A DNA stretch of 64,000 bases from Oceanicaulis sp. (GTDB lineage: Bacteria; Pseudomonadota; Alphaproteobacteria; Caulobacterales; Maricaulaceae): positions 2,339,282-2,403,281 of the forward strand of contig NZ_OZ252247.1 in assembly GCF_965249665.1 (NCBI RefSeq), read 5' to 3'. This document shows, one piece after another, positions 40,206 to 54,006 of this stretch (the first letter of the stretch is position 1; each line of letters starts with the position of its first letter). Under the pieces are notes generated by a model, which saw only the letters and a list, made by a program, of their open reading frames with translations, was not told the DNA's origin and made no database searches. The position numbers and the translations under genes were made by a program.

Positions 40206-40337
40206 TTTCTTCTTTGTCTCCCTCGCCTCCGTTCGGTCAGTCCTCGCTAAAGCTGCGGGCGGGCGTTAGCCCATGCGAACCCGTTGGGTTCGGGTTTGCG
40301 TATTATGAGGGGGGTGGGCCGAAGCCAGACAGACTTC

Positions 40338-40367
40338 GGGCGCTGGAGGGGGAAAGCTCCAGCGCCC
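40338..40367 (-). terminator. 11 bp GC-rich hairpin downstream of the pmp3-like gene
   Basis: gggcgctggag-8 nt-ctccagcgccc. There is no clear U-tract. Confidence 0.4.
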
Positions 40368-40393
40368 GATGATCAGTTTGGCGATGTGCCGGT

Positions 40394-40582
40394 CTAGCGG
40401 CGGGTGGCGATGATCCAGACGGCGTGAATGATGCCGGGAACATAGCCGAACAGGGTCAGGACAATGTTCAGCCAGAAATGAAGGCCAAGGCCGACCTGGA
40501 AGAACACGCCGAGCGGCGGCAGAAGAATGGCCAGGATCAGGCGCAGAATGTCGCCGCCAGTCGCAGTGGATTGAGCACTCAT
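40394..40582 (-). CDS. YqaE/Pmp3-family stress proteolipid
   Basis: 62 aa, ...ILAILLPPLGVFFQVGLGLHFWLNIVLTLFGYVPGIIHAVWII, the canonical Pmp3/UPF0057 motif. Confidence 0.85.
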   Translation of the reverse strand: MSAQSTATGGDILRLILAILLPPLGVFFQVGLGLHFWLNIVLTLFGYVPGIIHAVWIIATRR

Positions 40583-40611
40583 AGTGGGTCTCCTTTGTAT
40601 GGATTAGCGGA

Positions 40612-41319
40612 TCAGGACGCGTTGGACGCACTCAGAAACAACGAGGTGTCGCGGCCCGCCAACGCGTTGATCTGTGCGTCATTCACAGTCGTGGCGACGC
40701 TCCAGCCTTGAGGGGCCTCATAGTCAAAGTGCAGGGCGTTCACCGGAATGCGGCCGTCCAGCGCATCAAAGGCGAGCCAGCCGCTGTCTTCAAAATGCAC
40801 GGCCATGACGGCGCCGCCCTGACTGATTTCAAGGTCGTCAATCGCGATATCGGGCGCAGTGGCGCTGACCTGAATGGATTGCCCCAATAGGGCGCGCGCC
40901 GAATTCGCCTCACGATATTCAGCCGCCCAGCTCAAACCGATAGGTTCGTATCCGCCGCCCTGAGCGAGCATCTGGAACTCTTCGCGCGTGATGTCGGCGC
41001 GCAGTGTCTCAACGCCGGGCGCGCCGGCCAGATAGACGAGGTCGGCTGCGATCGCGGCATCGCCGTCCAGCCAATTGGGATGATCAACGACGATGGCGTG
41101 CAGATTGCCGGCTTCATCCACCAGCAAGTCCTTGATGGGGAGCTCCCCGTCAGTAAACGCCAGGCGCGATTGCAAGAGCGTGGAGGCCAGATAGAACGCC
41201 TTGCCGTCAGCCGTTTCGTTGACCAGGGTATTCTGTGGGGCGTCAAGATTTTGGGTGAAGGCGGTCGCTGACAATCCGGCCAGAGCCACGATCGCAGTCA
41301 AGGTCATAGCGGTCTTCAT
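40612..41319 (-). CDS. Secreted protein with two PRC-barrel-like repeats
   Basis: Start set at ATG 41319 (MKTAMTLTAIVALAGLSATAFTQ), which has a strong SD GAAGGAGG 8 nt upstream. Two segments resemble PRC-barrel domains. An EcfG-type promoter lies upstream. Confidence 0.65.
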   Translation of the reverse strand: MKTAMTLTAIVALAGLSATAFTQNLDAPQNTLVNETADGKAFYLASTLLQSRLAFTDGELPIKDLLVDEAGNLHAIVVDHPNWLDGDAAIAADLVYLAGAPGVETLRADITREEFQMLAQGGGYEPIGLSWAAEYREANSARALLGQSIQVSATAPDIAIDDLEISQGGAVMAVHFEDSGWLAFDALDGRIPVNALHFDYEAPQGWSVATTVNDAQINALAGRDTSLFLSASNAS

Positions 41320-41359
41320 CGTCAGGGCCTCCTTCATGTATGTTCAGGCTTGGTTTAGA

Positions 41360-41384
41360 AACGTGCCATGGGACGTCCGGTTCC
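41360..41384 (-). promoter_or_regulatory. EcfG (sigma-ECF15) type promoter GGAAC-N16-CGTT
   Basis: Minus strand reads GGAAC cggacgtcccatggca CGTT. Confidence 0.7.
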
Positions 41385-41404
41385 CGGTTTTTCAGGGAAT
41401 CACA

Positions 41405-41770
41405 ATGACCGTCGCCAAGACCGAACTTGCTGAAGAGCGGACAAACTTTGCGGAAGACCGCACGCTGATGGCCAGCGAGCGCACCTTCGCCAGCTGGCTG
41501 CGCACAGCGCTGGCCGCCATCGGCGTTGGGCTGGGGATGCAGGTGGTTTTTGACAGCTTTGAGCCCACCTGGATCGCCAAGATGATCTCCAGCCTGTTCA
41601 TGATGCTGGCGGTGGGGTTGATCGTGATGGGTCGGTTGCGGGACCGGGCCGTCGCACGATCGCTGAGCGCCCATTGTCTTGAAGGGCGCTCAAACTGGCT
41701 GGGAGATGTAGTGTCTGCAGGATTGTGCCTGGGCGCCCTGGGGGCGGTCCTGGTGATCTGGCTGGTCTAG
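41405..41770 (+). CDS. DUF202 (YidH) family membrane protein
   Basis: Start preferred at MTVAKTELAEERTNFAEDRTLMASERTFASWLRTALA, the DUF202 signature. Three TM helices. Confidence 0.75.
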   Translation: MTVAKTELAEERTNFAEDRTLMASERTFASWLRTALAAIGVGLGMQVVFDSFEPTWIAKMISSLFMMLAVGLIVMGRLRDRAVARSLSAHCLEGRSNWLGDVVSAGLCLGALGAVLVIWLV

Positions 41771-41771
41771 A

Positions 41772-42308
41772 TCACCACGCCTGGCGATAGCTCAGGCCGA
41801 TAAAATCAGATCGCGCGTTCCAACTGTTTTCGCCAAACCGTATTTCCCGGTTCTGACGAATATACCCTGCGGTGACTGCGCCATGATCATTCAGTGACAT
41901 GCCAACGCCCGCAAATCCGTCCGCCACGCCGACTTCGCCTGCCACGCGGGTCAGAGCGCTGATACCGCCGCCGCCCGGACGCATGATGACCGTCTCCTCA
42001 TCATAGGACACGATCAGGCTCAAACGTGAGATGGACCCAAAGGCGAGCGGACTCGTCTCCAGCTCCAGGCCGAGTCCGAAAGCGGACAGCTCGTCACTGT
42101 CAGCACGGCTTTCATTCTGAGCAGAAATAGTCGGGATCAACGCCGCGCTGTCCGCGCCGCCCAACGGGATGGACCAGGCGCTGTCGCTTGGGCCCTGGAA
42201 CTCAGCCTGTAATTGCGCGACAAACGTGCTTAGGACGGGACCGCGAACTTGCGCGTCCGGAGCCTGCGCAGCTTGCATAGCAATCAAAACGGCAGTAGTT
42301 GCGAACAT
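41772..42308 (-). CDS. Hypothetical secreted beta-rich protein (possible small OM beta-barrel)
   Basis: 178 aa with a signal-like N-terminus ending AQA and a C-terminal aromatic (…SYRQAW). SD gggagga lies upstream, and so does an EcfG-type promoter. Confidence 0.55.
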   Translation of the reverse strand: MFATTAVLIAMQAAQAPDAQVRGPVLSTFVAQLQAEFQGPSDSAWSIPLGGADSAALIPTISAQNESRADSDELSAFGLGLELETSPLAFGSISRLSLIVSYDEETVIMRPGGGGISALTRVAGEVGVADGFAGVGMSLNDHGAVTAGYIRQNREIRFGENSWNARSDFIGLSYRQAW

Positions 42309-42337
42309 GGCGTCCTCCCGATTTTGTATGAAAGACT

Positions 42338-42362
42338 AACGTCAGGGAGGCGAAACAGTTCC
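42338..42362 (-). promoter_or_regulatory. EcfG-type promoter GGAAC-N16-CGTT
   Basis: Minus strand reads GGAAC tgtttcgcctccctga CGTT. Confidence 0.7.
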
Positions 42363-42393
42363 CTTCAGAGAAGAGCTGAAGTGTTCAGGGCGG

Positions 42394-42660
42394 CTATTGG
42401 CCGTCGCGCAGCGCCTTGATCAGCTCGCTCTTGGTCATGCTCGAGCGCCCGTCGATGCCGATCTCCTGGGCGCGGTCGTACAACGCATCTTTCGTCCAGT
42501 CTTCATAGGCGTCGTGGGCGCCCCCTTTTGCAGCGGCGTCGCTGTCATCGGACGCCTGGGCGTTGGCGATGCGGGCGGCTTTGGATTTGGACGCGCCCTC
42601 CTCGCGCAGGGCTTCATAGGTTTCGTCATCCTTCACGGACGGACCATGATCCTTTGTCAT
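42394..42660 (-). CDS. Small hydrophilic stress protein with C-terminal Rho_N-like (SAP-like) motif
   Basis: 88 aa with ...WTKDALYDRAQEIGIDGRSSMTKSELIKALR. Its start overlaps the mscS stop. Confidence 0.7.
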   Translation of the reverse strand: MTKDHGPSVKDDETYEALREEGASKSKAARIANAQASDDSDAAAKGGAHDAYEDWTKDALYDRAQEIGIDGRSSMTKSELIKALRDGQ

Positions 42661-43859
42661 TATTCGTCTCCGTTTGCTGGGGGCTGTGGCGTTGTGGCGG
42701 GATCGACGACCGAGCCGTCATCGCGAGCGAGCATCAAGGTGCGCGTGGGGTAGGCGAACTCCACGCCCTCATCTGCGAACTTGCGCACGAGGGCGAGATT
42801 CACGGCGTGACGCACGTCCATGTAAACAGCGTAGTCCAGACTCTGGGCGTGACAGACAATCTCAAACTCCATTGCGCTGTCGGCGAAGCGGGCGAAATGA
42901 GCGCGTTCAAAACGGGCCTGGTCGGTCTCGTCGATAATGGCTTTGATCCAGTCCGGGATCTGCTCCAGCTGATCCGCGGCGGTCTGATAGGTCACACCGA
43001 TCTGAAACAGCCAGCGCCGCTCTTCGAGCCGTTGAAAATTGCGGATCGTCATGTCGAGCAGATTGGTGTTGCGGATGACGATCTCTTCGCCGGACAAGGA
43101 ACGCAGGCGTGTGGTTTTCAGTCCAATCTTGCTGACCGTGCCCAGACATTCGCCAAACTCGATCAAGTCATTGCGTTTGAAGGGTTTGTCGAACAGGATC
43201 GAGATGCCGGCGAACAGGTCGCTGAACAATCCCTGAGCCGCCAGGCCGATAGCGATGCCGCCAATGCCGAGACCTGCAATCAGGGCGGTGATGTCCACGC
43301 CGGCGTTATCGAGCAGGACCAGAAAAGCCGCTGACCAGATAAAGGTGCTGATCGCCCATTTGATGATGGCGATGCCGTTCCAGACAGCGCTGCGGCTGTC
43401 TGCGCGCTGTAAGGCGCGACGCTGCACCAGATCGACAGCCAAACCGCGAAAGATCGCTGCGACCTGTATGATCAACACCAGGCCCAGGATATACCAGATG
43501 GCGTCCAGAACGCTTTGAGGCGAGGATGTTACGCTCAGTCCGATAGCGGCGCCGATGATCAAAAAGGTCATGGCGGACAGCCGCTCTGCCGTTCCCAACA
43601 TAACGTGGGCCAGACTGCTTTGATCCAGGCGCTGGCGCGCAAACGACACGCCCCATTTTATCAAGAGCGCGGTGATGGTCACTGCCAGGGTGAGTGAAAG
43701 CGCCAGGGTCACCGATTGAGTATCCTCGGCGATCCAGTCCAGAAGTTCAGTAAAGGCCATGCGCCCTTGCTCGACGACGCCCTGAACGTTTTCCTCGACA
43801 GCGTTGAGGGTGTTTGAAGCTTCTGTATCCGGAGCTTGGGTCATGACAGGTCCCCGCAT
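42660..43859 (-). CDS. Mechanosensitive ion channel (MscS family)
   Basis: 399 aa with multiple N-terminal TM helices and the MscS beta-domain pattern (FDKPFKRNDLIEFGECLGTVSKIGLKTTRLRSLSGEEIVIRN). The start may instead be 43844. Confidence 0.85.
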   Translation of the reverse strand: MRGPVMTQAPDTEASNTLNAVEENVQGVVEQGRMAFTELLDWIAEDTQSVTLALSLTLAVTITALLIKWGVSFARQRLDQSSLAHVMLGTAERLSAMTFLIIGAAIGLSVTSSPQSVLDAIWYILGLVLIIQVAAIFRGLAVDLVQRRALQRADSRSAVWNGIAIIKWAISTFIWSAAFLVLLDNAGVDITALIAGLGIGGIAIGLAAQGLFSDLFAGISILFDKPFKRNDLIEFGECLGTVSKIGLKTTRLRSLSGEEIVIRNTNLLDMTIRNFQRLEERRWLFQIGVTYQTAADQLEQIPDWIKAIIDETDQARFERAHFARFADSAMEFEIVCHAQSLDYAVYMDVRHAVNLALVRKFADEGVEFAYPTRTLMLARDDGSVVDPATTPQPPANGDE

Positions 43860-43862
43860 ATG

Positions 43863-43890
43863 AAAAAGCGGACCCGCAGGCCCGCTTTTG
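43863..43890 (-). terminator. Hairpin with flanking A/T runs between dps and mscS
   Basis: aaaagcgg-acccgcaggc-ccgctttt. On the minus strand the stem is followed by ttttt. Confidence 0.5.
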
Positions 43891-43907
43891 CAAAGTCAAA
43901 AATGATC

Positions 43908-44417
43908 TTATTGCTTTGCGATGATGGCGTTGAGCATCCAGATCGCCTCTTCGTGCCAGCTCATGCGCTCGATCAGCATGTCGGCAGTGACGAAATCTTT
44001 CTTGTCTTCGCACCATTCGATGGCGTCGCGCATGGATTTGACCGCGGTGCGGTGGTCGTCCACCAGCATGCGCACATGCGCGTCAGCAGATTGTTCCAGA
44101 TCGTAATCGCGGATCTCTGACAGCTCGCCGTACTTGCGATAGGAAGCCGGGGCTTTTTCTCCCAAGGCGCGGATCCGCTCGGCCAGCTCGTCAATGGCGT
44201 GATAGAGATTCTCGTAATGCTCTTCAGTCAACTTGTGCAGGCTGTAGAAGGTTGGGCCGACCACATTCCAGTGCACGCCTTGGGTCTTGATAAACAGCAT
44301 GTAGCTGTCGGCGAGCACCTTGCCCAGTGCGCCAGCAATCTGGGTGCGATCTTCGGCTTCGATGCCGGATTTCGGGGCGAATGCGGCGGACTTGGACGCG
44401 AGAGCGGTGCTGCTCAT
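43908..44417 (-). CDS. dps: Dps-family DNA-protection/ferritin-like protein
   Basis: 169 aa with LADSYMLFIKTQGVHWNVVGPTFYSLHKLTEEHY...DELAERIRALG, the Dps ferroxidase-centre pattern. Confidence 0.9.
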   Translation of the reverse strand: MSSTALASKSAAFAPKSGIEAEDRTQIAGALGKVLADSYMLFIKTQGVHWNVVGPTFYSLHKLTEEHYENLYHAIDELAERIRALGEKAPASYRKYGELSEIRDYDLEQSADAHVRMLVDDHRTAVKSMRDAIEWCEDKKDFVTADMLIERMSWHEEAIWMLNAIIAKQ

Positions 44418-44447
44418 CTCAGTTCTCCATCAGTTGCGGACCCTTTC

Positions 44448-44473
44448 AACGCGGGTCGTGACGGATGGGTTCC
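44448..44473 (-). promoter_or_regulatory. EcfG-type promoter GGAAC-N17-CGTT upstream of dps
   Basis: Minus strand reads GGAAC ccatccgtcacgacccg CGTT. Confidence 0.7.
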
Positions 44474-44612
44474 AAAAATTGACAGTAAACCTGCCGCATT
44501 CGACACGTCTCACAAAAACACATCTATTGAAAAGGGCCAGCGCGGACCCTCAGGCAAAAACTATGCTTTATTATACGAGCTGAAACTGTAGTGGTTTTTT
44601 CTGAAAATTTTG

Positions 44613-44637
44613 GGAACCGGATATGGGCGAGGGCGTT
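44613..44637 (+). promoter_or_regulatory. EcfG-type promoter GGAAC-N16-CGTT upstream of the DUF1328 operon
   Basis: Reads GGAAC cggatatgggcgaggg CGTT. Confidence 0.7.
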
Positions 44638-44673
44638 GATTGGGGGACTGTTTAATGTTGAAGGAGCTACACC

Positions 44674-44850
44674 ATGTTGAGACTGGCCCTTGGATTTTTC
44701 GTCGTCGCCCTGATCGCGGCCCTCTTCGGTTTTGGCGGCATTGCAGCCGGCGCGGCCTCAATCGCGCAAGTTCTGTTCTTTGTCTTTCTGGTGCTGTTTG
44801 TGGTGTCGCTGCTGTTTGGCGCCCTGCGTGGACGCTCACCCCGAGCCTGA
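44674..44850 (+). CDS. DUF1328 (UPF0391/YtjA-like) small membrane protein
   Basis: 58 aa, below the ORF-track cutoff. My translation is [60 protein letters not shown] aaggag lies 8 nt upstream. Confidence 0.85.
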
Positions 44851-44867
44851 ACGTAGAGCCTTTATGA

Positions 44868-44899
44868 GAAGTCTGGCGGCGTAACAGTCGCCAGACTTC
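44868..44899 (+). terminator. 11 bp hairpin after the DUF1328 gene (attenuator/terminator, no U-tract)
   Basis: gaagtctggcg-10 nt-cgccagacttc. Confidence 0.35.
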
Positions 44900-44933
44900 A
44901 TCTGACAGACTTCAACAAAAAAGGATGTTGATC

Positions 44934-45155
44934 ATGAAACAGTTTGCCCCGCTGTTTATCGCCCCGTTTTTTATGGCTGCTGCGGCCTGCTCAGACGGTC
45001 CGGCTGAAAACGCTGGCGAAGACGTTGATGAGGCGATCGAGGACGTAACTGGCGAAGAGCAAGGTACGTTCGAGGAAGCTGGTGAAAACCTGGATGACGC
45101 GGCTGATGACGCCGAAGACGCCATCGAGGACGCGACCGACGAACCGCCTCGCTAA
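44934..45155 (+). CDS. Small highly acidic lipoprotein, entericidin-like N-terminus
   Basis: MKQFAPLFIAPFFMAAAAC (lipobox) is followed by AGEDVDEAIED...AEDAIEDATDE. The second ATG is preferred because of SD spacing. Confidence 0.6.
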   Translation: MKQFAPLFIAPFFMAAAACSDGPAENAGEDVDEAIEDVTGEEQGTFEEAGENLDDAADDAEDAIEDATDEPPR

Positions 45156-45203
45156 ATTTGGTTTTGCGACCATCATCCCCTTCAAAACACAAAGGAGAGC
45201 GAC

Positions 45204-45488
45204 ATGGCACGCGCCACTGCTAAGTCCGATGTTACGACTGAAGAGCTGAAATCTGATCTGGATGCGCTGCGTGCGGATATGGATCAGTTGGTCGGCGACT
45301 TGTCCAAGATCGTCCAGCAAAGCGGGGAATCGGGTGTCAAAGCCGGACGTTCCGCAATCGAGGACGGCTTGGACGCTGCAGAAGAAGCGCCTGACCAATT
45401 GCGTGAGCTCATTCGTGAGAACCCGCTTGGCGCCTGCGGCGCCGCGATTGGCGCAGGGTTTCTCGGCGCCCTGTTGATGCGTCGCTAG
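45204..45488 (+). CDS. DUF883 (ElaB/YqjD-like) membrane-anchored stress protein
   Basis: 94 aa with LKSDLDALRADMDQLVGDL, and a C-terminal ENPLGACGAAIGAGFLGALLMRR anchor. SD aaaggaga upstream. Confidence 0.8.
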   Translation: MARATAKSDVTTEELKSDLDALRADMDQLVGDLSKIVQQSGESGVKAGRSAIEDGLDAAEEAPDQLRELIRENPLGACGAAIGAGFLGALLMRR

Positions 45489-45498
45489 GAGACGCACT

Positions 45499-45861
45499 GT
45501 GAACGCGCTTCTGATAGCTATCGCGCTCATCGGGCCTGTACTCGGCGCAGTATTCGCCACCCATGCGGGATGGAGCTGGGCGTCAAACCAGTACTCCCCA
45601 TGGGTGGCCAGCGCCCTGGTCGGCTCTATTTATGCATGCCTGGGTTCAATCGCCGCGGCGACACTGTTGTGGAGAGCCAAGGCGAGCAAACCACCGGCTC
45701 AAGCGCCCTCGGGCGCCGCGTCGCCTCTGACGCTGGTTGAGACCGCTATGAAACGTAAACCGCTGCAAACCACGGCAGCCTTGATGGGTTTGGGCGCGCT
45801 TTTGGCTCGAAAGCCAAAACTGGCTCTAACAGCCCTCTCAAAGTTTGCGGCCTCCAGCTGA
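45499..45861 (+). CDS. Hypothetical membrane protein downstream of the DUF883 gene
   Basis: 120 aa, GTG start, 2-3 hydrophobic helices. It sits where YqjE/YqjK-type partners usually sit, but I see no clear motif. Confidence 0.5.
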   Translation: MNALLIAIALIGPVLGAVFATHAGWSWASNQYSPWVASALVGSIYACLGSIAAATLLWRAKASKPPAQAPSGAASPLTLVETAMKRKPLQTTAALMGLGALLARKPKLALTALSKFAASS

Positions 45862-45872
45862 AGGGTCTTCCC

Positions 45873-46676
45873 TTGTCAAAAAAGAATGATCAGGAGCTGC
45901 GCGCCAAGCGATTAGCGGCGCGCAGCGAAATTGCGTCTAAAACGCTTTATTCCATCATTGCTGAGACGGGCAAAGAGGAGCTTCTGCGCCCCTCCAGCTC
46001 TTTATTGTATTCCGCGTTGACAGCCGGACTCGCCATGGGCGCGTCCGTTTTGCTGATGGGCGCAATCGAGCGCGCTGTCGGAGATGCTGACTGGAGCTAT
46101 CTGGCGATTGCTGCCGGATACCCGGCGGGCTTTTTGCTGATCGCAATGGCGCGCATGCAATTGTTCACGGAAAACACGCTGACGGCGGTTCTGCCTGTGA
46201 CCAAGCATCGGCGCTGGAGATCTGTACGCTTGTTGATGCGGCTTTGGGCAATTGTCTTGTTCGGCAATCTGGTGGGGGCCGTCGTGATCGGTTCAGTGCT
46301 CAGTCATGTGACCGACCCAGAGCTGTTTGACGCGATGGTCACGGCATCCTCTCACATCATGCATCGCGACATAGCGGGCAATTTCATTGCTGCGTTGCCA
46401 GCCGGCTTCCTGATCGGGCTGATGGCCTGGTCATTACCCGGCCTGCCCTATGAAAAGCTCGGGACGGTGTTCATTGTGACTTATCTGGTGGGCGCTGGCG
46501 GCTTTCCGCACATCGTAGCCGGCACCGTGGAAGCGACCGTCCTGATCGTCGCGGGCAGTTGGGGCGTTGGCGACGCAATCAGCTTCATCATTCCCGTTCT
46601 CATCGGCAATACTTTGGGCGGTGCGGCGCTGTTTGCAGGCTTGGCGTACGGCCAGGTGCACGAAGAAATCGAATAG
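45873..46676 (+). CDS. Formate/nitrite transporter (FNT) family protein
   Basis: 267 aa, TTG start. Six TM helices with LFTENT and ...GGFPHIVAG... FNT-like loops. Confidence 0.75.
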   Translation: MSKKNDQELRAKRLAARSEIASKTLYSIIAETGKEELLRPSSSLLYSALTAGLAMGASVLLMGAIERAVGDADWSYLAIAAGYPAGFLLIAMARMQLFTENTLTAVLPVTKHRRWRSVRLLMRLWAIVLFGNLVGAVVIGSVLSHVTDPELFDAMVTASSHIMHRDIAGNFIAALPAGFLIGLMAWSLPGLPYEKLGTVFIVTYLVGAGGFPHIVAGTVEATVLIVAGSWGVGDAISFIIPVLIGNTLGGAALFAGLAYGQVHEEIE

Positions 46677-46689
46677 ACGGGTTCAGGTC

Positions 46690-46714
46690 GGAACGTATTG
46701 CGACCTGAGGCGTT
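46690..46714 (+). promoter_or_regulatory. EcfG-type promoter GGAAC-N16-CGTT with no downstream ORF
   Basis: Reads GGAAC gtattgcgacctgagg CGTT, starting 14 nt after the FNT stop codon. Confidence 0.7.
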
Positions 46715-46720
46715 GTTTCG

Positions 46721-47123: not shown

Positions 47124-47849
47124 TTAGCGGCCGTCAAGATAGGCGCCGGCGTTGACCGGAGTCTCTTCGAGCATCTCGACATCTTCCGACGTCAGATCGG
47201 CTGAGACAGTCCAGCCAGCTTCAGTGGTGTAACCAAGCTCAAGAGCGTCAAAGTCAACGCGGCCGACATTGCCGCCGAAGCCGATGAACCCGCCATCACG
47301 GATGATGGCGTACTCGGTGTCGCCTTGCGCAGTGAACTCCACGTCTTCGATATGGGCGATGGTTTCGCCCTGGGCGTTCACGATGGCAGATCCGGTCAGA
47401 TCGCTGTAAAACAGATCGCCGTCTTCACGTTGGTCTTCGACAGAGACGGTAAACGGGCTGTTCTCAATGACCTCGGCGTCATCCAGCTGATCGTCTGTGA
47501 TGGACGCGGTCACGACTAGCTCGCCTTCCGCACCATAAGACAGGTTTGCAGCGATTGTGGACACTGCAACTTCCTCGTCAAACAGTCCCAGGAAGCCGCC
47601 GCGGGAGATAATCAGCGCTTCGGGGTCGCCTGCATCGCTCATCCGGATGTCCGTGATGGCGGAGGCGCCGTCTGCGTATTCGAGATCCGCGCCGACAACG
47701 TCGGACGCCTTGATGGTGTCCGCCATCATGGCGGCTTCGACATGGGACTCCGTTTCCATGTGTGCTGTCGCATCCTGGGCTTGCGCCGTTGCGAGAGCGG
47801 TGGTGGAAACCAGAGCGATCGAGGTGGTCAGCATCAGCTTGTTCAACAT
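47124..47849 (-). CDS. Secreted PRC-barrel domain protein (two repeats)
   Basis: 241 aa with a signal peptide ...ALATAQAQ. Two PRC-barrel-like segments are present (...VVGADLEYADGASAITDIRMSDAGDPEALIISRGGFLGL... and ...LTGSAIVNAQGETIAHIEDVEF...AIIRDGGFIGFGG...). SD aaggaga upstream. Confidence 0.75.
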   Translation of the reverse strand: MLNKLMLTTSIALVSTTALATAQAQDATAHMETESHVEAAMMADTIKASDVVGADLEYADGASAITDIRMSDAGDPEALIISRGGFLGLFDEEVAVSTIAANLSYGAEGELVVTASITDDQLDDAEVIENSPFTVSVEDQREDGDLFYSDLTGSAIVNAQGETIAHIEDVEFTAQGDTEYAIIRDGGFIGFGGNVGRVDFDALELGYTTEAGWTVSADLTSEDVEMLEETPVNAGAYLDGR

Positions 47850-47892
47850 AACTGTCTCCTTTTGCTAGCGATCAATTCGAACGCAATTAGGA

Positions 47893-47917
47893 AACGTCGT
47901 GAGCTTGCGCTGGTTCC
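47893..47917 (-). promoter_or_regulatory. EcfG-type promoter GGAAC-N16-CGTT
   Basis: Minus strand reads GGAAC cagcgcaagctcacga CGTT. Confidence 0.7.
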
Positions 47918-47985
47918 ATAATACAGTTGGGCGATTTCGCGAAACTATTGTGTCGAATCCTCTTGATTCTGACACATTGTCTGAC

Positions 47986-48029
47986 GCATATAAAAACGCC
48001 GGGATTTTTATCCCGGCGTTTTTATATGC
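47986..48029. terminator. Perfect 44 bp palindrome / bidirectional terminator 3' of phyR
   Basis: gcatataaaaacgccggga-ttttta-tcccggcgtttttatatgc. The GC core stem is flanked by A/T runs on both sides. Confidence 0.65.
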
Positions 48030-48051
48030 GTATCTTGCTTGTGCTTGCTTT

Positions 48052-48825
48052 TTATTCAGCCGCAACAGCTTCCTTGTCGAAGAAGAACAGCGCCTGGCTC
48101 ATTGTGGCTGTGACGGTTTCGGGCATGAAGGGCTTGGTCACCAGATAGGTCGGTTCCGGTTTCTCGCCGGTCAGCAAGCGTTCGGGATAGGCGGTGATGA
48201 AGATCACCGGCAGGTTCATCTCGCCCAGTATATCTTTCACGGCGTCGATGCCCGAGCTGTCGTCCGCCAACTGAATATCAGCGAGAACGAGCCCGGGCGG
48301 GGATTTTTGGGCCAGCTCCACGGCCTGGTCGCGGGTTCGAGCCACGCCGGTGACCGTATGGCCGGCATTCTCCACGATAGCTCGCAGATCAAGGGCGATC
48401 ACAGGTTCGTCCTCAATGATCATCACGCGAGTGGCGAGCCCGGCGTTCAGCTCTTGTTGTGCTGAGACCAGCAGAGCCTGAGCCTCATCGTCGCCGATGC
48501 GCAGAATGGAGGCCACATCCTCGATGGAGAACCCTTCGACGGACGTGAGCAGCATGACTTGTCGGGCTTTGGGTGTGACATGCGACAGCGGGTTTTGGCT
48601 GTCTGAGGGATCGGTGACGTCAAGCTGGCTGTTCCAGCACGCGTGGAACAACTGGAAGAGTGCGACATGAGGCGGTAAATCCCGTCCCAGTTCCTCATTG
48701 CCTTCAACAGCCGCCTCCAGACAGGCGCGCACATGGGCGTCACCGCTTTGTTGTGATCCCGTCAGGATGCGCGCATACCGGCGCAGGTAGGGAATATGTG
48801 ACCGTATCGCTGTAACAAAACTCAT
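48052..48825 (-). CDS. phyR: Anti-anti-sigma response regulator PhyR (sigma-like N-domain + receiver)
   Basis: Start preferred at MSFVTAIRSHIPYLRRYARILTG (EcfG-like sigma region). The C-terminal receiver is VMIIEDEPVIALDL...LVLADIQLADDSSGIDAV...KPF. Confidence 0.9.
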   Translation of the reverse strand: MSFVTAIRSHIPYLRRYARILTGSQQSGDAHVRACLEAAVEGNEELGRDLPPHVALFQLFHACWNSQLDVTDPSDSQNPLSHVTPKARQVMLLTSVEGFSIEDVASILRIGDDEAQALLVSAQQELNAGLATRVMIIEDEPVIALDLRAIVENAGHTVTGVARTRDQAVELAQKSPPGLVLADIQLADDSSGIDAVKDILGEMNLPVIFITAYPERLLTGEKPEPTYLVTKPFMPETVTATMSQALFFFDKEAVAAE

Positions 48826-48860
48826 AGTCGGGCTCTCCCCACAAAAAATACCAAGCAACA

Positions 48861-48885
48861 AACGAACAACGATCCAAACGGTTCC
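48861..48885 (-). promoter_or_regulatory. EcfG-type promoter GGAAC-N16-CGTT for phyR
   Basis: Minus strand reads GGAAC cgtttggatcgttgtt CGTT. Confidence 0.75.
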
Positions 48886-48904
48886 AAAAAAATTCAGTTT
48901 TTTG

Positions 48905-48929
48905 GGAACCCGATCCCAGTTTGCTCGTT
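48905..48929 (+). promoter_or_regulatory. EcfG-type autoregulated promoter GGAAC-N16-CGTT for nepR-ecfG
   Basis: Reads GGAAC ccgatcccagtttgct CGTT, 59 nt upstream of the nepR ATG. Confidence 0.8.
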
Positions 48930-48987
48930 CCTCTTATACGGCAGATGTATTCTGTAAGATCTATCTATGTGAGAATGGCGAATATTA

Positions 48988-49206
48988 ATGGCAATGTCTG
49001 AGGATAAAAACAGGGCTGCCGCCAAGCTAGACCCTGCGCTGCTGCAGCGGACTCGCAAGCAGCAGGAAAACCTTGGCGCTGGATTGCGCAAGATGTTTGA
49101 TTCCGTGGTCGAAGAGGGCGTGCCGGACGCTTTTGAAGACCTTCTTGACCGGCTGGAACAAGGCGAGTCCGAGCGCGCCGACGGCAAGGATGACTCTCAT
49201 GAGTAA
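48988..49206 (+). CDS. nepR: Anti-sigma factor NepR
   Basis: 72 aa with ...LGAGLRKMFDSVVEEGVPDAFEDLLDRLE, the NepR signature. The stop overlaps the ecfG start. Confidence 0.8.
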   Translation: MAMSEDKNRAAAKLDPALLQRTRKQQENLGAGLRKMFDSVVEEGVPDAFEDLLDRLEQGESERADGKDDSHE

Positions 49207-49825
49207 GTCCGGTTCAGACGGCGCTGGCCTAACGGCCTCCGAACTCATGCCTCAGGCGGAGTTTCGAAAAGAACTAACCGAAGCCATTCCTCACATGCGC
49301 GCCTTTTCACGAAGTCTGACAGGCGATGCAGCAAGCGCGGACGATCTGGCTCAAGACGCCATGATGAAAGCCTGGTCTGCACGCGACAAATTCAAAGCTG
49401 GAACGAACTTTCGCGCTTGGGTCCTGACCATCGTGCGCAATCAGTTCTACTCCAACAAACGTCGATCCTGGCGCCAGGCGGATTGGGATCAGGAGCTTGC
49501 GGAGCGAACTTTGCCGGCTGTCGACAACCAGGAACAGGTTGTAGCTCTGGACGAATTAAGACGTGGTCTTGCTGAATTGCCCGAAGATCAGCGTGAAGCG
49601 CTCATACTGGTCGGAGCGGGCGGCTATTCCTATGATGAAGCGGCGGAGATTTGCGGTTGCGCGACAGGAACCGTGAAAAGTCGTGTTTCGCGGGCGCGTC
49701 TGGCTTTGGAAGGCATCATGAAAGCCGGACCGGCCGCTAAGGCAAACGCAGATGGCGTCGCCGCCTCTGACGCGGTGGACACGCTGCTTGGTCATGTCAG
49801 CGACCTGGCAGAGCAGGCGCGCTGA
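49199..49825 (+). CDS. ecfG: ECF sigma factor EcfG (SigT-type, ECF15)
   Basis: Start preferred at MSKSGSDG (ATG 49199). Region 2 is DDLAQDAMMKAWSARDKFKAGTNFRAWVLTIVRNQFYS and region 4 is YDEAAEICGCATGTVKSRVSRAR. Confidence 0.9.
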   Translation: MSKSGSDGAGLTASELMPQAEFRKELTEAIPHMRAFSRSLTGDAASADDLAQDAMMKAWSARDKFKAGTNFRAWVLTIVRNQFYSNKRRSWRQADWDQELAERTLPAVDNQEQVVALDELRRGLAELPEDQREALILVGAGGYSYDEAAEICGCATGTVKSRVSRARLALEGIMKAGPAAKANADGVAASDAVDTLLGHVSDLAEQAR

Positions 49826-49827
49826 CC

Positions 49828-51426
49828 ATGCCTTTCAACCCTGGGGGCGCCATGACCGGGCGATTACGTTTCGTACTCGCCCTGGTCCTTGCTGTTGCGC
49901 TGTTCCCGCTCTTGTTAATCGCCATGGCGCAAACCTGGAGCGAAGCGCGTGAAGAGCAACGCGTGCAGAGTGATCGCATGATCATTCTGGGCGCTTTGGC
50001 GGCGTCCGAGCTCAATGAATCCATCGCGCGGGCGCAAGGCGTAGTCGATGCTGTCTCCACGCGGGGGTTCGCTTTCATGAGCGCGCCGGGGGGATGCAGC
50101 CGGGCCATGGCGCAAATCGCCCGCGGCGATTCCGTCCTGACCAACATTGCTCTGACGGATGCGAATGGCGAAATCATTTGCACCGGTCTTGAAGAAGCCC
50201 AGGACCTGAATATGGCGTCAGAGGAGTGGCACGCGGCGCTGAGTAGCGGTGAGCAGCAAACCGTGTCCGGTGTTTTGATGGGACCGGTCTCCAGAACCCC
50301 CATTCTCGTGGTCGCGAACCGTCTTGGAGACGGGCCTGATTTCAGAGGCACGGCGGCAGCTGCCATTGATGTGCTGCGCGCCTCAAGAATCCTCATCGAC
50401 AACGCCATGGCGGATGGCAGTCAGGTCCTGCTCGTCACGCCGACTGAGGCGCGCGAAGTGGACCGTTCGCGTACGCTCATGCCAGCGAGCATCGAAATTC
50501 AGGACGATTTGCTTCAAAGCGTCCAACTGATCGATGAGCCCCAACCGACACGTATTCGGTTTGAAGGCGAAGACAGACCCGCTGTGCTCGCCCCCCTTGT
50601 CGGGGGACAGCTCGCCTTGCTGCTGATCTCACCCACACCGACGACGCAATGGGGGCTGGTGTCAGTCGCCGTGACCTTTCTGGTGCCTTTGTTGATGTAC
50701 GCTTTGGCGCTTGTGAGTGTATGGTTGGCCGTCGACCATTACGTCCTGCGCTGGTTGGGATATTTACGCCGGATCGCTGCGGTGTATGGCGGCGGACGTC
50801 TGGACGTCGTGCCGGTCCGGGCGCGCAATGCACCGAGCGAAATCCGGGAGCTGGCGAACACCATGGGCGAGATGGCGTCGTCCCTGGACAAGCAGCAAAG
50901 CGAGCTTGAAGCGTCGGTCGAGCAGCGTGGCGCATTGCTTCGCGAAATTCACCACCGGGTCAAAAACAACCTGCAGATCATCGTTAGCCTGCTCAATCTT
51001 CAGGCGGGGCGGATGACAGACGGGGAGGCCCGCATGGCGTTAATGGAGGCGCGCCGCCGCATCAACGCTTTGTCGCTCGTCCACCGCAGCCTGTATGAGG
51101 CGGATGATCTGAGAGCGGTTTACATGCCGGGTTTCCTCAGGGAGCTTGCGCTAAATCTCCAGCAGGCCAGCGATGACGGATCGCGTGCTGTCAGCGTGCA
51201 GGCGGAGTGCGATGAAGTGTCCTTTGAACCGGATACAGCAGTGCCGATCGCACTCTTCGTGGCGGAGGCTGTCACCAACGCCTACAAGCACGCCTTCACC
51301 CAGCGCACCCAGGGGCGCATTCTGATCTCCTTGAGCGCCACCGAGCCTGAAGCCCTGATCTTGCGGGTCTCTGATGACGGCGAGGGCATGGGGAGCATGC
51401 ATCACAGGGCACGGGCTCGTCATTGA
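49828..51426 (+). CDS. HisKA_2-type sensor histidine kinase (PhyK-like); ORF truncated before the G2 box
   Basis: Two TM helices flank a roughly 270 aa periplasmic domain. The H-box is EIHHRVKNNLQIIVSLLNLQ, followed by an N-box and a G1 box VSDDGEGMG. A stop follows at 51424-51426. The expected G2 box and tail (QGTGSSLMEAFAMQLDGRTWSEPNADGGMDFVLQVGEEND*) are readable in the -1 frame, which is open from 51378 to the stop at 51525-51527. Confidence 0.8.
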   Translation: MPFNPGGAMTGRLRFVLALVLAVALFPLLLIAMAQTWSEAREEQRVQSDRMIILGALAASELNESIARAQGVVDAVSTRGFAFMSAPGGCSRAMAQIARGDSVLTNIALTDANGEIICTGLEEAQDLNMASEEWHAALSSGEQQTVSGVLMGPVSRTPILVVANRLGDGPDFRGTAAAAIDVLRASRILIDNAMADGSQVLLVTPTEAREVDRSRTLMPASIEIQDDLLQSVQLIDEPQPTRIRFEGEDRPAVLAPLVGGQLALLLISPTPTTQWGLVSVAVTFLVPLLMYALALVSVWLAVDHYVLRWLGYLRRIAAVYGGGRLDVVPVRARNAPSEIRELANTMGEMASSLDKQQSELEASVEQRGALLREIHHRVKNNLQIIVSLLNLQAGRMTDGEARMALMEARRRINALSLVHRSLYEADDLRAVYMPGFLRELALNLQQASDDGSRAVSVQAECDEVSFEPDTAVPIALFVAEAVTNAYKHAFTQRTQGRILISLSATEPEALILRVSDDGEGMGSMHHRARARH

Positions 51427-51534
51427 TGGAGGCGTTCGCCATGCAGCTGGACGGCCGGACCTGGTCTGAACCCAATGCAGATGGCGGCATGGATTTTGTT
51501 CTGCAGGTGGGCGAAGAAAACGACTGACATTAAG

Positions 51535-51559
51535 GGAACGCCTTGTGTGCTGGCGCGTT
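51535..51559 (+). promoter_or_regulatory. EcfG-type promoter GGAAC-N16-CGTT
   Basis: Reads GGAAC gccttgtgtgctggcg CGTT, 30 nt upstream of the entericidin-like ATG. Confidence 0.7.
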
Positions 51560-51588
51560 TTATTGAGGCCATAACCCAGGAGGTTTCT

Positions 51589-51726
51589 ATGAAATACGTT
51601 GTTCTTTGTGCTTTTGCTGTCGCTACGCTTTTGTTGACCGGATGCAACACTATTGCAGGTGCAGGTCGCGATATCGAAGAAGCTGGCGATGCTATTGAAG
51701 ACACGGCAGAAGAAAACCGAAACTAG
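51589..51726 (+). CDS. Entericidin EcnA/B-family small lipoprotein
   Basis: 45 aa, below the track cutoff in this frame. My translation is MKYVVLCAFAVATLLLTGCNTIAGAGRDIEEAGDAIEDTAEENRN. SD aggagg lies upstream. Confidence 0.8.
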   Translation: MKYVVLCAFAVATLLLTGCNTIAGAGRDIEEAGDAIEDTAEENRN

Positions 51727-51742
51727 GCTCAGTCCTGTTTTG

Positions 51743-51773
51743 AAAAGGCCCCGTCATTTGACGGGGCCTTTTT
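51743..51773. terminator. Bidirectional intrinsic terminator
   Basis: aaaa-ggccccgtc-attt-gacggggcc-ttttt, shared by the convergent entericidin-like and amidotransferase-like genes. Confidence 0.8.
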
Positions 51774-52447
51774 CATTGGCATTGCTTGATGAAAGTCCTG
51801 AATAGACGTCTCATATCACGTCTGTATACAAGTAATTCGGGGTGGAATTGAACGCCTAGCCGCAAGGGTGCAGTGTCTGCCTGAATGGCCTGAACGCCGC
51901 CTCGCTCTCCGCAGGCGACCGCGTGAAATCCTGGTGCAACCTTGCGCACGGCCCGGCGGTGAAGACTGTTCACCCGAACGCTCTCGTGAGGCGCAACACA
52001 GTCAGCCAGAAGGCTTTCCCCGATCAGCGTGATCGGCTTTCTGAAAAAGGTGTAGCCGATCGGGCCGTTCGGCCAGTCGCGCGTCATGTCGGGGTCCAGC
52101 GTCTGGTGCAGATCTCCACCATAAAAGACGTTGAGCATTTGCAGGCCGCGACAAACGCCCATGACCGGCAGATCGTGATCTTTCGCATGTTGAAGCCAGC
52201 TGATTTCAAGTGCGTCCCGATCGGGATCAAACTGGCTCTCAACTTCAACGGAGGCGTCATACTGGCTCGGATGGATGTCCAGGCCGCCCATCAGGATCAG
52301 GCCGTCTAACCGGCGCTTCCCCGAAGTGGGCGCGTTCTTCACCCGCACCGGCTTGCCGCCGGACAGGCGGATCACGGCGTCCACAAGTACAGACAACAAT
52401 ATGTCGCCCTTGGGGGCGGTCACATAGCCAATGACAGGACGTGTCAT
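51773..52447 (-). CDS. Class I glutamine amidotransferase-like / peptidase C26 (gamma-glutamyl hydrolase) family protein
   Basis: 224 aa with LDGLILMGGLDIHP, the nucleophile VMGVCRGLQMLNV and a His region LGVQFHPE. Overlaps the upstream ATP-grasp stop by 4 nt. Confidence 0.8.
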   Translation of the reverse strand: MTRPVIGYVTAPKGDILLSVLVDAVIRLSGGKPVRVKNAPTSGKRRLDGLILMGGLDIHPSQYDASVEVESQFDPDRDALEISWLQHAKDHDLPVMGVCRGLQMLNVFYGGDLHQTLDPDMTRDWPNGPIGYTFFRKPITLIGESLLADCVAPHESVRVNSLHRRAVRKVAPGFHAVACGERGGVQAIQADTAPLRLGVQFHPELLVYRRDMRRLFRTFIKQCQ

Positions 52448-53739
52448 GATCCAACCGAGTCAAAGCTGATTTCTGGCGGCAGCTCGCCGTACTTGGCCAG
52501 ATGCGACACAATGAACAGAGCGCCGAGCGCCGCGGCTGGGTCATCCTTGGCCAAAAGGTCCACATCCAGATGAGACCGGTCCATCACGCGAAGCGTCACA
52601 TCCTCAAGGGCTTCTTTCGCGGCTTTCGCATCTGATAGAGACGCGAGCACGCGTCCAAACTTTTTCAGACTGAAGCCTTTGGAATTCTTAAGTCGCTTCC
52701 AGCTCTCAGACAGCTGATTGGCGTACTCGCTCGCGCTGAAAGCCCCGTCTATCGCGGAGGGAAGCCAGGCGAGCGGGACTTGGGACCGAAAGCCGATCTC
52801 CGGCGTGCCCGGCTCAGAGCGCAAGGCGCCGTGCAAGGTCAGCTCCGCCAGCAAGCGCGCATAGTCGACGCCGCTCAGCGTGGAGTGACGCAATCCAGCC
52901 CAGAACCGCGCATTCACCTCAATGGCAGAAGGGGCGTCGTCTTCCTCTCCGGTCCACATGAAATCGGCTTCGAAGACACCTGTCCAATTGGTGGCCTTGG
53001 CGATCTTGCGCACATCCGCTTCGAAGGGAGCGGTGCTGACGGTTTCACGCACAACGCCGGCGCCCGCTTCGCGCGGTTGGTTTTCGAGATTGGTGTAGGC
53101 TGACATCACCAAGACGTCTCCTTCATGCACCAACGCGCTGACACAGTAATCATCGCCATCCGCCAGTGATTGCGCCAGCAGCGGATAGTCGTTTTCGTGA
53201 GCTTTGAGATAGGCCTCGTATTCATCCTGTGAGGCGATCTTGGAAATCCCGCGACCGCCTGCGCCCCGGCTCGGCTTCATCAAGATCGGGAACGGCGTCT
53301 CCGGTCCTTCTTGCGCTTCTGTCTCGGTCTCAAAGATCTGGGTTTTCGGGGCGTTGATATCGTTGTCCCAGATCAAAGCCGCAAAATGGTGTTTGGGCGT
53401 GACTTTTTCGATGGATGAGCAATCCGGGGCGGCCAGTCTGGCGTTGGTCGGCAGCAGGGATTTGTGGCGCGCCAGCGCTTCCATATCTTCAAACCCTGGC
53501 AGGATCAGGACCGTATCGTCTGCAAACTCCTCACAGATATCCGCGATGTCCCGAGTGTAGGCCTCCTCATCTGAAGGCTCGCTCACCGTCCGCGTTTCAT
53601 CGCAATATTTCGAGAAGGACAGGGCGGTCAGCCCGATCGTGTCCAGGCCGATAACATGGTCGACCATAGGCCGGACCGACTCTGCAATGGTCAAAGCCAT
53701 CAGGCTGCGTCCATAGGTGATCAATGCGCATGTCTTCAT
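52444..53739 (-). CDS. ATP-grasp domain ligase, function unknown
   Basis: Start preferred at MKTCALITYG. Contains PILMKPSRGAGGRGI (phosphate loop) and IEVNARFW (the E-x-N Mg site). The roughly 120 aa C-terminal extension matches no family I recognise. Confidence 0.8.
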   Translation of the reverse strand: MKTCALITYGRSLMALTIAESVRPMVDHVIGLDTIGLTALSFSKYCDETRTVSEPSDEEAYTRDIADICEEFADDTVLILPGFEDMEALARHKSLLPTNARLAAPDCSSIEKVTPKHHFAALIWDNDINAPKTQIFETETEAQEGPETPFPILMKPSRGAGGRGISKIASQDEYEAYLKAHENDYPLLAQSLADGDDYCVSALVHEGDVLVMSAYTNLENQPREAGAGVVRETVSTAPFEADVRKIAKATNWTGVFEADFMWTGEEDDAPSAIEVNARFWAGLRHSTLSGVDYARLLAELTLHGALRSEPGTPEIGFRSQVPLAWLPSAIDGAFSASEYANQLSESWKRLKNSKGFSLKKFGRVLASLSDAKAAKEALEDVTLRVMDRSHLDVDLLAKDDPAAALGALFIVSHLAKYGELPPEISFDSVGS

Positions 53740-53748
53740 GATTGTCGT

Positions 53749-53774
53749 AACGCGCGGACCGCACATGTCGTTCC
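53749..53774 (-). promoter_or_regulatory. EcfG-type promoter GGAAC-N17-CGTT for the ATP-grasp operon (near-leaderless)
   Basis: Minus strand reads GGAAC gacatgtgcggtccgcg CGTT. Only 9 nt separate CGTT from ATG 53739. Confidence 0.6.
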
Positions 53775-53787
53775 CGGCAGTTCTTTT

Positions 53788-53813
53788 GGAACGCTTTCTC
53801 GGTTACGTGCGTT
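53788..53813 (+). promoter_or_regulatory. EcfG-type promoter GGAAC-N17-CGTT
   Basis: Reads GGAAC gctttctcggttacgtg CGTT, 16 nt upstream of ATG 53830. Confidence 0.65.
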
Positions 53814-53829
53814 TCAGAGGCCTACAACC

Positions 53830-54006
53830 ATGGAGCAGGTGATGAAAAACCAAAAACCGAGTCCTGTCGTTCTGGTCGCCGTCGCCCTCGTTCTTGTGCT
53901 GATTGGCACGCTTGGCACGTTGGTCTGGCAGGAATCTCAAGACGACACGGTCGAAATCCAGTTCGGGGATGGAAGCGTTCGCTTTGAAACCGGCGGGCTG
54001 GAGTAA
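53830..54006 (+). CDS. Hypothetical 58 aa single-pass membrane protein
   Basis: My preferred start inside track ORF 53656..54006 gives MEQVMKNQKPSPVVLVAVALVLVLIGTLGTLVWQESQDDTVEIQFGDGSVRFETGGLE. A T-rich hairpin follows at about 54064-54096. Confidence 0.5.
   Translation: MEQVMKNQKPSPVVLVAVALVLVLIGTLGTLVWQESQDDTVEIQFGDGSVRFETGGLE

Follow-up and report, generated by a model that had tools for sequence, protein, structure and literature searches.

Genes and features of the block

The window analyzed here is a 64-kb stretch of DNA from an Oceanicaulis genome (a single contig of 2,921,753 bp with 61.7% GC), and our subject is the interval from position 40206 to 54006 within it, which we call the block. 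It contains the regulatory genes of the alphaproteobacterial general stress response (GSR), namely phyR, nepR, ecfG, and a HisKA_2 kinase gene, together with 11 exact copies of GGAAC-N16/17-CGTT, the consensus of promoters recognized by EcfG, an extracytoplasmic function (ECF) sigma factor. Downstream of these 11 sites, numbered P1 to P11, lie 20 protein-coding genes and one small RNA (sRNA) candidate. On the left, the block is bordered by a MATE transporter gene, a methyltransferase gene, and a tRNA-Leu gene, with the genes of the block beginning 189 nt past the tRNA. On the right, the genes for TamA and TamB follow. All features are collected in Table 1.

We compared the block with its counterparts in six related species. 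Four of these were compared over the whole block (G024, G015, G014, and Oceanicaulis sp. HTCC2633, here G013, which is of the same genus as the window genome), and two for the order and strand of the sites only (G042 and G041). The PhyR proteins of the fully compared species are 99% (G024), 98% (G015), 93% (G014), and 89% (G013) identical to that of the window.

The core of the block consists of phyR, which is divergent from nepR-ecfG, with an exact EcfG-type site before both units. This divergent, autoregulated layout is the usual one (PMC4814048). In the PhyR protein, Pfam places a sigma-like domain at the N-terminus and a receiver domain at the C-terminus, and nepR lies directly upstream of ecfG with an overlap of 8 nt. 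There is one EcfG in the genome. Four other ECF sigma factor genes are present, but their products are only 27–31% identical to EcfG, so that even the next ECF sigma factor reaches just 31%.

The kinase gene behind ecfG encodes the single HisKA_2/HWE kinase of the genome. Compared with G024, G015, G014, and G013, it is one G short in a run of G near 51391, and its G2 box and C-terminus are thereby shifted into another frame that ends at 51527. In G024, the closest relative and likewise a one-contig assembly, ecfG itself (G024:C1:113800-114427, L031) falls into two pieces in different frames, covering residues 1–140 and 134–208, which suggests a frameshift there too. Indels of this kind are typical of long-read assembly errors, and the kinase frameshift could be either such an error or real decay.

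The genes around this core had originally been described as classic GSR cargo, and Pfam confirmed the families concerned (Pmp3, DUF202, MscS, Dps, DUF1328, PRC, entericidin, and, weakly, DUF883_C). Pfam likewise assigned the last gene of the P4 operon to the formate/nitrite-transporter family. The 241-aa PRC-barrel-like protein encoded next to pmp3 had no family match of its own but proved to be a paralogue of the PRC protein encoded at 47124–47849 (27% identity, E=5e-11). The DUF202 gene is the only block gene without a facing EcfG-type site, even when up to one mismatch was allowed, and it is absent from G013. Two of the neighborhoods recur elsewhere: the trio of DUF1328, DUF883, and membrane protein genes is also found beside phyR in the genus's other PhyR clade, and the adjacency of kinase and entericidin genes, including the site between them, is found in other families of the order.

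Two of the predicted leaders stand out. The first 15 nt past the −10 box of P4, GATTGGGGGACTGTT (44638–44652), do not differ among four species and are almost unchanged in G013, a degree of conservation far above that of the leaders of other block units. The ATG of the ATP-grasp gene follows the CGTT of P10 by 9 nt, and a spacing of 8–9 nt is kept in five species (53739–53752 in the window). This implies a conserved leaderless mRNA, and the ATP-grasp transcript is thus apparently leaderless.

Table 1. Features of the block and its borders. Distances run from the −10 box of a site to the ATG; the genes named beside P1 to P11 are those that each site is predicted to drive.
Feature	Position	Strand	Evidence	Remark
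tRNA-Leu (anticodon TAG)	40121–40205	+	ARAGORN; Rfam tRNA, 55 bits	left border
pmp3	40394–40582		Pfam Pmp3, E=2.9e-22	
PRC-barrel-like gene, 241 aa	40612–41337		no family match	
P1	41360–41384	−	exact motif, 22 nt before ATG	PRC-barrel-like gene, pmp3
DUF202 membrane protein gene	41405–41770	+	Pfam DUF202, 7.6e-14	
Secreted protein gene, 178 aa	41772–42308		no Pfam or NCBIfam match	
P2	42338–42362	−	exact motif, 29 nt before ATG	178-aa secreted protein
DUF7218/Rho_N gene	42394–42660		Pfam DUF7218, 2.8e-21; Rho_N motif sub-threshold	
mscS	42660–43859		Pfam MS_channel, 3e-18	
dps	43908–44417		Pfam Ferritin, 1.5e-27	
P3	44448–44473	−	exact motif, N17, 30 nt before ATG	dps, mscS, DUF7218/Rho_N gene
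P4	44613–44637	+	exact motif, 36 nt before ATG	five-gene DUF1328 operon
DUF1328 gene	44674–44850			P4 operon
Lipoprotein gene, 76 aa	44925–45155			P4 operon
DUF883 gene	45204–45488		Pfam DUF883_C, weak	P4 operon
Membrane protein gene, 120 aa	45499–45861			P4 operon
Formate/nitrite-transporter family gene	45873–46676			P4 operon
P5	46690–46714	+	exact motif	no open reading frame downstream
Candidate GsrN-like sRNA, ~115 nt	46720–46833	+	three hairpins	
Secreted PRC-barrel protein gene	47124–47849		Pfam PRC, 1.2e-11	
P6	47893–47917	−	exact motif, 43 nt before ATG	secreted PRC-barrel protein
phyR, 257 aa	48052–48825	−	Pfam PhyR_sigma2, 4.5e-23; PhyR_sigma-like, 3.5e-14; Response_reg, 1.7e-13	
P7	48861–48885	−	exact motif, 35 nt before ATG	phyR
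P8	48905–48929	+	exact motif, 58 nt before ATG	nepR, ecfG, HisKA_2 kinase
nepR	48988–49206	+	Pfam NepR, 1.5e-13	
ecfG	49199–49825	+	Pfam Sigma70_r2/r4_2, ~1e-17; PhyR_sigma2 similarity	
HisKA_2 kinase gene	49828–51426, then in another frame to 51527	+	HisKA_2, 1.6e-24	
P9	51535–51559	+	exact motif, 29 nt before ATG	entericidin-family lipoprotein
Entericidin-family lipoprotein gene	51589–51726		Pfam Entericidin, 4.1e-8	
Peptidase C26/class-I amidotransferase-like gene	51773–52447		Pfam Peptidase_C26, 4.6e-38	
ATP-grasp ligase gene	52444–53739		Pfam ATP-grasp_3, 1.5e-9	
P10	53749–53774	−	exact motif, N17, 9 nt before ATG	ATP-grasp ligase, peptidase C26 gene
P11	53788–53813	+	exact motif, N17, 16 or 28 nt before two candidate ATGs	54–58-aa membrane protein; right edge of block
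Membrane protein gene, 54–58 aa	53830 or 53842 to 54006	+		
tamA	54114–55823		NCBIfam TamA, 1e-48	follows block

Enrichment and conservation of the promoter motif

A pattern search on both strands found 12 exact copies of GGAAC-N16/17-CGTT in the window. Eleven of them are the block sites, on the same strands and at the same positions as in the original prediction, which had been made from the letters by eye and had put the chance expectation for 64 kb at about one site. Dinucleotide-preserving shuffles of the window (n=100) agreed with that estimate, averaging 0.91 sites with a maximum of 4, and none reached 12. The remaining site, at 2082(+), runs antisense within a gene and has no gene downstream; it is the single chance match expected for the window.

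The placement of the block sites was also in line with what had been proposed, namely that each points toward a start codon, or in one case a structured RNA, at a distance of 9–60 nt. At ten sites, the spacing from −10 box to start codon measures 9–58 nt, and all sites are correctly oriented. The eleventh (46690–46714) has no open reading frame downstream and instead precedes a structured RNA that ends in an intrinsic terminator. Start codons were picked by Shine-Dalgarno context and Pfam coverage, and distances were read off the sequence; with the start codons so placed, all 11 sites lie outside coding sequence.

Across the whole genome, a scan of the kind originally proposed as a check on the motif found 51 exact sites against ~44 expected by base composition, indicating that the motif is at background level away from the block. 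By contrast, 11 of the 51 fall inside the block, which at 13.8 kb makes up 0.47% of the genome and for which the Poisson expectation is ~0.2 (P of order 1e-15, by hand arithmetic). Other 14-kb bins contain at most about 3 exact sites, and the next-densest bins merely overlap the block.

We then compared how often the motif falls into promoter zones, a classification that rests on crude codon-usage gene calls. The exact motif did so at 16 of its 51 genome-wide sites, compared with only 11 of 196 for five control motifs in which one box base was altered. Attempts to enlarge the regulon with relaxed motifs (HGAAC...CGTT and GGAAC...GGTT) gave 8 of 159 sites in promoter zones, which is no enrichment, and spacers of N15 and N18 yielded 1 site each, without excess. 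Because promoter-zone enrichment is thus confined to the exact motif with N16/17, only the exact consensus appears to act like a promoter signal in this genome. Matches with one mismatch inside the block were mostly the opposite strand of the near-palindromic motif, and a simple sigma-70 promoter scan of all intergenic regions in the block came back empty. Most of the 11 sites have a run of T (of A for P1) directly before GGAAC, which is kept in relatives, for example, at 44605–44612, 48886–48904, and 53780–53787. This run ahead of the −35 box may be an UP-like element.

The sites are strongly conserved among the related species. Of the 66 orthologous positions given by 11 sites and six species, 64 have the exact 9/9 site, and in G042 and G041, the sites stand in the window's order and on the same strands. 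P1, P2, P4, P6, and P11 have an exact site at the orthologous position in all six relatives, in the case of P2 despite a diverged spacer. The dps promoter P3 retains its exact site in five of six relatives and is missing in G042, while P5, before the sRNA candidate, is kept in G024, G014, G013, G042, and G041 and lost in G015. The DNA around the boxes has changed far more: compared with the window, the spacers of G014 and G013 are 46% identical, the 15 nt upstream of the sites 48%, and the 15 nt downstream 59%. Boxes that are kept while the surrounding DNA turns over indicate purifying selection on the boxes themselves.

G024 has an additional, twelfth exact site (L031:9542-9566), which faces the bidirectional terminator behind phyR and could yield another short transcript. 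Its counterpart in the window, at ~47937–47961, has decayed to GAAAC...CTTG.

A probable clustered stress regulon and its alternatives

We consider it highly probable that the interval 40206–54006 is a GSR locus in which a regulon of EcfG-promoted genes is clustered around phyR, nepR-ecfG, and the kinase. The 11 predicted promoters are very likely EcfG promoters, because they are phylogenetically footprinted, phyR and nepR-ecfG have the same consensus upstream, the genome encodes one EcfG only, and comparable cargo is EcfG-dependent in Sphingomonas melonis. Motif, footprinting, and Pfam together therefore support the proposal, already part of the original prediction, that these are EcfG-type promoters of a stress regulon surrounding the GSR regulators. 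On this reading, the divergent phyR and nepR-ecfG genes and the HisKA_2 kinase would form the core, accompanied by ten further transcription units, each with an EcfG promoter of its own.

From the known PhyR-NepR-EcfG system, we infer how the block would operate. Stress would lead to phosphorylation of PhyR, and phospho-PhyR would sequester NepR and so free EcfG. RNA polymerase carrying EcfG would then fire the 11 GGAAC-N16/17-CGTT promoters, raising the system's own regulators and switching on ~20 protective genes and one small RNA. Among the cargo, Dps would serve in DNA and iron protection and MscS as an osmotic release valve, with Pmp3, DUF1328, DUF883, and entericidin as small membrane proteins. 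The remaining products would include two secreted PRC-barrel paralogues, a channel of the formate/nitrite-transporter family, and an ATP-grasp ligase with its amidohydrolase-like C26 partner.

The regulon would also extend beyond the block. Elsewhere in the genome, ~10 exact sites are placed like promoters, and up to four more are possible. The genes behind these outside sites encode a GST-like protein, DUF892, an OmpA/glycine-zipper lipoprotein, SIMPL/DUF541, an OmpA-type porin, an EamA transporter, and DUF4126, and three further outside sites precede small proteins without a family. DUF892, the OmpA/glycine-zipper lipoprotein, SIMPL, and the GST-like protein are themselves typical stress proteins. 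By this approximate count, the block would hold 11 of roughly 21–25 recognizable direct EcfG promoters, or about half.

Compared with known GSR loci, the core is conventional. The canonical locus of Caulobacter (sigT-nepR-phyR-phyK), Erythrobacter litoralis (10.1101/641647), and Methylobacterium extorquens (PMC4814048) contains these four regulator genes too, likewise in a divergent arrangement, with EcfG-type promoters of consensus GGAAC-N16/17-CGTT on both divergent units. Here, however, ten further EcfG-promoted units (~17 cargo genes and the sRNA) are packed around the regulators, the genome has one HWE/HisKA_2 kinase where other species are described as relying on a kinase ensemble (10.1101/641647), and that kinase is frameshifted.

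The cargo likewise resembles the EcfG regulon of S. melonis Fr1, which includes MscS channels, ferritin-like/Dps proteins, a PRC-barrel protein, and numerous small hypothetical proteins; experiments have shown dependence on EcfG there for MscS channels, ferritin-like proteins, and a PRC-barrel protein (PMC6599016). Promoter motifs in S. melonis are GGAAC...CGTT or GGTT, located 8–90 nt from the coding sequence and often degenerate, and the transcript IDs of the members in Table 1 of that study run from #0072 to #3509, suggesting a wide spread (PMC6599016). In our genome, by contrast, enrichment is limited to the exact consensus, and a single block contains about half of the sites concerned.

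In contrast to the original prediction, physical concentration of the regulon around its regulators is not unusual. As a baseline, we fetched 20-kb loci around phyR via PhyR alignment and counted the motif in 54 full-length alphaproteobacterial loci. These contained 0–11 exact sites with a median of 2, and the lone locus with 11 was that of G013, from the same clade as the window. Still, 11 of the 53 other phyR loci held 8–10 exact sites in 20 kb (in Roseibium, Bosea, Pelagibius, and several Phenylobacterium and Caulobacter). Several baseline loci also carry the same cargo families beside phyR; one locus from a metagenome-assembled genome (L088), for instance, has Pmp3, DUF1328, MscS, DUF7218, Dps, and a formate/nitrite-transporter gene there. 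Regulon clustering around phyR is thus evidently widespread, and the block is a dense instance of it rather than an outlier. It differs from the other dense clusters in its site number, which is the highest of the range (11 within 14 kb vs. a median of 2 per 20 kb), in having its own gene order, and in its ATP-grasp/C26 operon and two PRC paralogues, which were matched in none of 21 loci outside its clade (clade A, described below) by tblastn. A literature search found no paper describing EcfG regulon clustering as such, and the published term “GSR locus” refers to the regulators only (bioRxiv 10.1101/641647).

Several observations weigh against our interpretation. The sole HWE/HisKA_2 kinase is frameshifted before its G2 box, and if this is real, the activation step may be impaired in this strain. 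The estimate that the block holds about half of the regulon is only approximate because the genome-wide gene calls are crude. GGAAC −35 boxes are common to other ECF groups, and other ECF sigma factors are present in the genome. Finally, the case that the block was inherited vertically, to which we now turn, rests on one marker-gene tree.

The block had also been proposed to be a tRNA-linked island, and in the form of this idea that would compete with ours, a ready-made stress regulon with its regulators was acquired horizontally and integrated at the tRNA-Leu gene. The proposed borders are correct, in that the block does start beside tRNA-Leu and end at tamA. In favor of acquisition, its GC content (57–60%) is 2–5 points below the genome mean. 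The distribution of PhyR could also be explained in this way, as a true PhyR was found in just 13 of 27 species of the genus. Seven of these form clade A, which has the full block, and five form clade B, which has a mini-cluster of 3–8 sites in another genomic context, with no tRNA, tamA, or MATE gene within 10 kb; the last, G023, is an isolated PhyR-bearing species. Moreover, orthologues of the block Dps and ATP-grasp proteins (at least 78% identity) occur only in clade A.

However, the marks of a mobile element were lacking. There is no integrase or recombinase among the open reading frames from 40206 to 54114, all of which are accounted for, and even with 3 mismatches allowed, the window contains no second copy of the 28-nt 3′ end of tRNA-Leu, so that there is no direct repeat. 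The comparison of the interval from tRNA-Leu to tamA across related genomes, suggested at the outset, instead revealed synteny throughout the clade: the order methyltransferase, tRNA-Leu, block, tamAB is fully preserved in G024, G015, G014, and G013, with the same tRNA-Leu flanking the block in all four and tamA following it in clade members, and the order of the sites is the same in all seven species. This order has been maintained despite protein identities down to 55–89%. The lower GC content is partly due to the many intergenic regions of the block. PhyR identity between clades A and B (~70%) equals that of the flanking MATE-transporter marker (~71%) and exceeds that to any PhyR outside the genus (59% at most), a pattern that fits descent with losses. 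On the single-marker MATE-transporter tree, the distribution of PhyR requires at least three changes. Congeners without PhyR have tamA and the MATE-transporter flank separated by hundreds of kb, so no empty site is definable. We examined Dps genes near tamB in G008 and G012 as possible remnants of the block and rejected them. Acquisition as an island is therefore unlikely, and we regard the block as a vertically inherited regulon cluster rather than a mobile island, descent with several losses being more likely than acquisition.

It is also conceivable, but quite improbable, that the promoters are real and are read by one or more ECF sigma factors other than EcfG, in which case the block would not be a single GSR regulon. 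The four additional ECF sigma genes of the genome would provide candidates, an AAC-containing −35 box is common among ECF sigma factors (PMC8103513), and PhyR-less congeners encode EcfG-like sigma factors (44–47% identity), with the same motif beside those of G020 and G022. Yet an identical 9-base consensus before both nepR-ecfG and phyR is a hallmark of EcfG autoregulation (PMC4814048), the motif fits the published EcfG consensus with its 16/17-nt spacer while N15 and N18 are not in excess, and the cargo overlaps experimentally defined EcfG regulons.

An explanation of the clustering by chance or base composition, given a motif that is short and degenerate and DNA that is GC-rich, is already refuted: the near-background genome-wide count does mark most sites outside the block as noise, but 11 sites in 13.8 kb where ~0.2 are expected, a number of window sites that no shuffle reached, uniformly correct orientation outside coding sequence, and retention of nearly all orthologous sites despite spacer turnover are incompatible with it.

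A candidate small RNA and the patchy distribution of PhyR

The transcript predicted downstream of P5 (46720–46833) folds with a minimum free energy of −53 kcal/mol, well below shuffled sequences (z = −5.7). It forms three hairpins, with CCUCCCCCUGAC in the loop of the middle one and an intrinsic terminator (~46800–46833) as the last. An alignment of six species showed compensatory changes in 8 of 30 pairs across the three hairpins, and CCUCCCCCUGAC is invariant in five of the six and located in the loop of the consensus second hairpin of the predicted fold. G015 (L032:11521-11714) has lost the promoter together with hairpins one and two and, with them, the C-rich loop, so that only the terminator hairpin remains.

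GsrN-like RNAs outside Caulobacteraceae have been recognized by an EcfG promoter, proximity to the GSR locus, and an exposed C-rich loop (Tien et al. 2018, eLife, PMC5869019). Our candidate resembles them in all three respects: its predicted EcfG promoter is 1.2 kb from the 3′ end of phyR, placing it near phyR/ecfG, and its loop is C-rich and exposed. It differs from GsrN in that the C-rich loop is in the second hairpin rather than at the 5′ end and in that the candidate is limited to one clade of the genus, within which G015 has lost it. No Rfam family matches it, it is single-copy in the genome, and a covariance model searched against 72 other phyR loci (including those of Caulobacter, Phenylobacterium, and Brevundimonas) returned terminator-driven matches only; that search covered phyR loci, and GsrN itself was not compared directly. 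Since neither a covariance-model relative nor a second copy was found, we call the candidate GsrN-like by analogy and not as a demonstrated homologue. Pairing of its C-rich loop with the G5 leader of the DUF1328 operon or with other 5′ regions of the block was considered and rejected. RNAduplex energies of the sRNA against all block genes lay within the genome-wide bulk, the best being DUF1328 at the 15th percentile.

The species of the genus in which PhyR was absent include ones with complete genomes, such as G008, G012, G020, and G022, and PhyR searches in several sister families of the order were likewise negative. Some PhyR-less congeners nevertheless encode EcfG-like sigma factors. These are located at G020:C1:791478-792049 and 2531111-2534795 and at G022:C1:65528-66097 (44–45% identity), and exact GGAAC-N16-CGTT sites adjoin the sigma factor genes in both genomes. 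G011 has a similar EcfG-like sigma factor (47% identity); the search for adjoining sites covered the sigma factor genes of G020 and G022. An EcfG-like system independent of PhyR may operate in these PhyR-less congeners. A comparison of genome-level motif excess between species with and without PhyR was dropped because raw motif counts are confounded by composition, which leaves only clustering as informative. Even clustering can be mimicked, as in the PhyR-less genome G008, where at least 8 tandem copies of an 84-bp unit (G008:C1:2380870-2381567) carry the motif by chance.

For this small marine genome, the footprinted set of 11 predicted EcfG promoters and ~20 target genes amounts to a compact predicted core GSR regulon. 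It also defines units of uncharacterized function that are directly testable: the two PRC-barrel paralogues, the apparently leaderless ATP-grasp/C26 pair, the 178-aa secreted protein, and the sRNA with its C-rich loop. The general picture of how the GSR works is unchanged by these results, and clustering of this kind is frequent. A by-product of the analysis is of more interest: about half of the species in the genus, as well as several sister families, lack PhyR. Some PhyR-less species keep an EcfG-like sigma factor with the same promoter motif. This could be explained, tentatively and with considerable doubt, if the GSR here were a compact module, nearly complete in itself, that species retain or lose as a whole, either as the block or as the PhyR switch, with PhyR-less species using a PhyR-independent EcfG-like sigma factor instead. 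If so, the module would comprise the only EcfG, the only HWE/HisKA_2 kinase, a lineage-specific sRNA with a C-rich loop, and about half of the direct EcfG promoters, and the genus would offer a natural experiment on how far the alphaproteobacterial GSR can be dispensed with and rewired.

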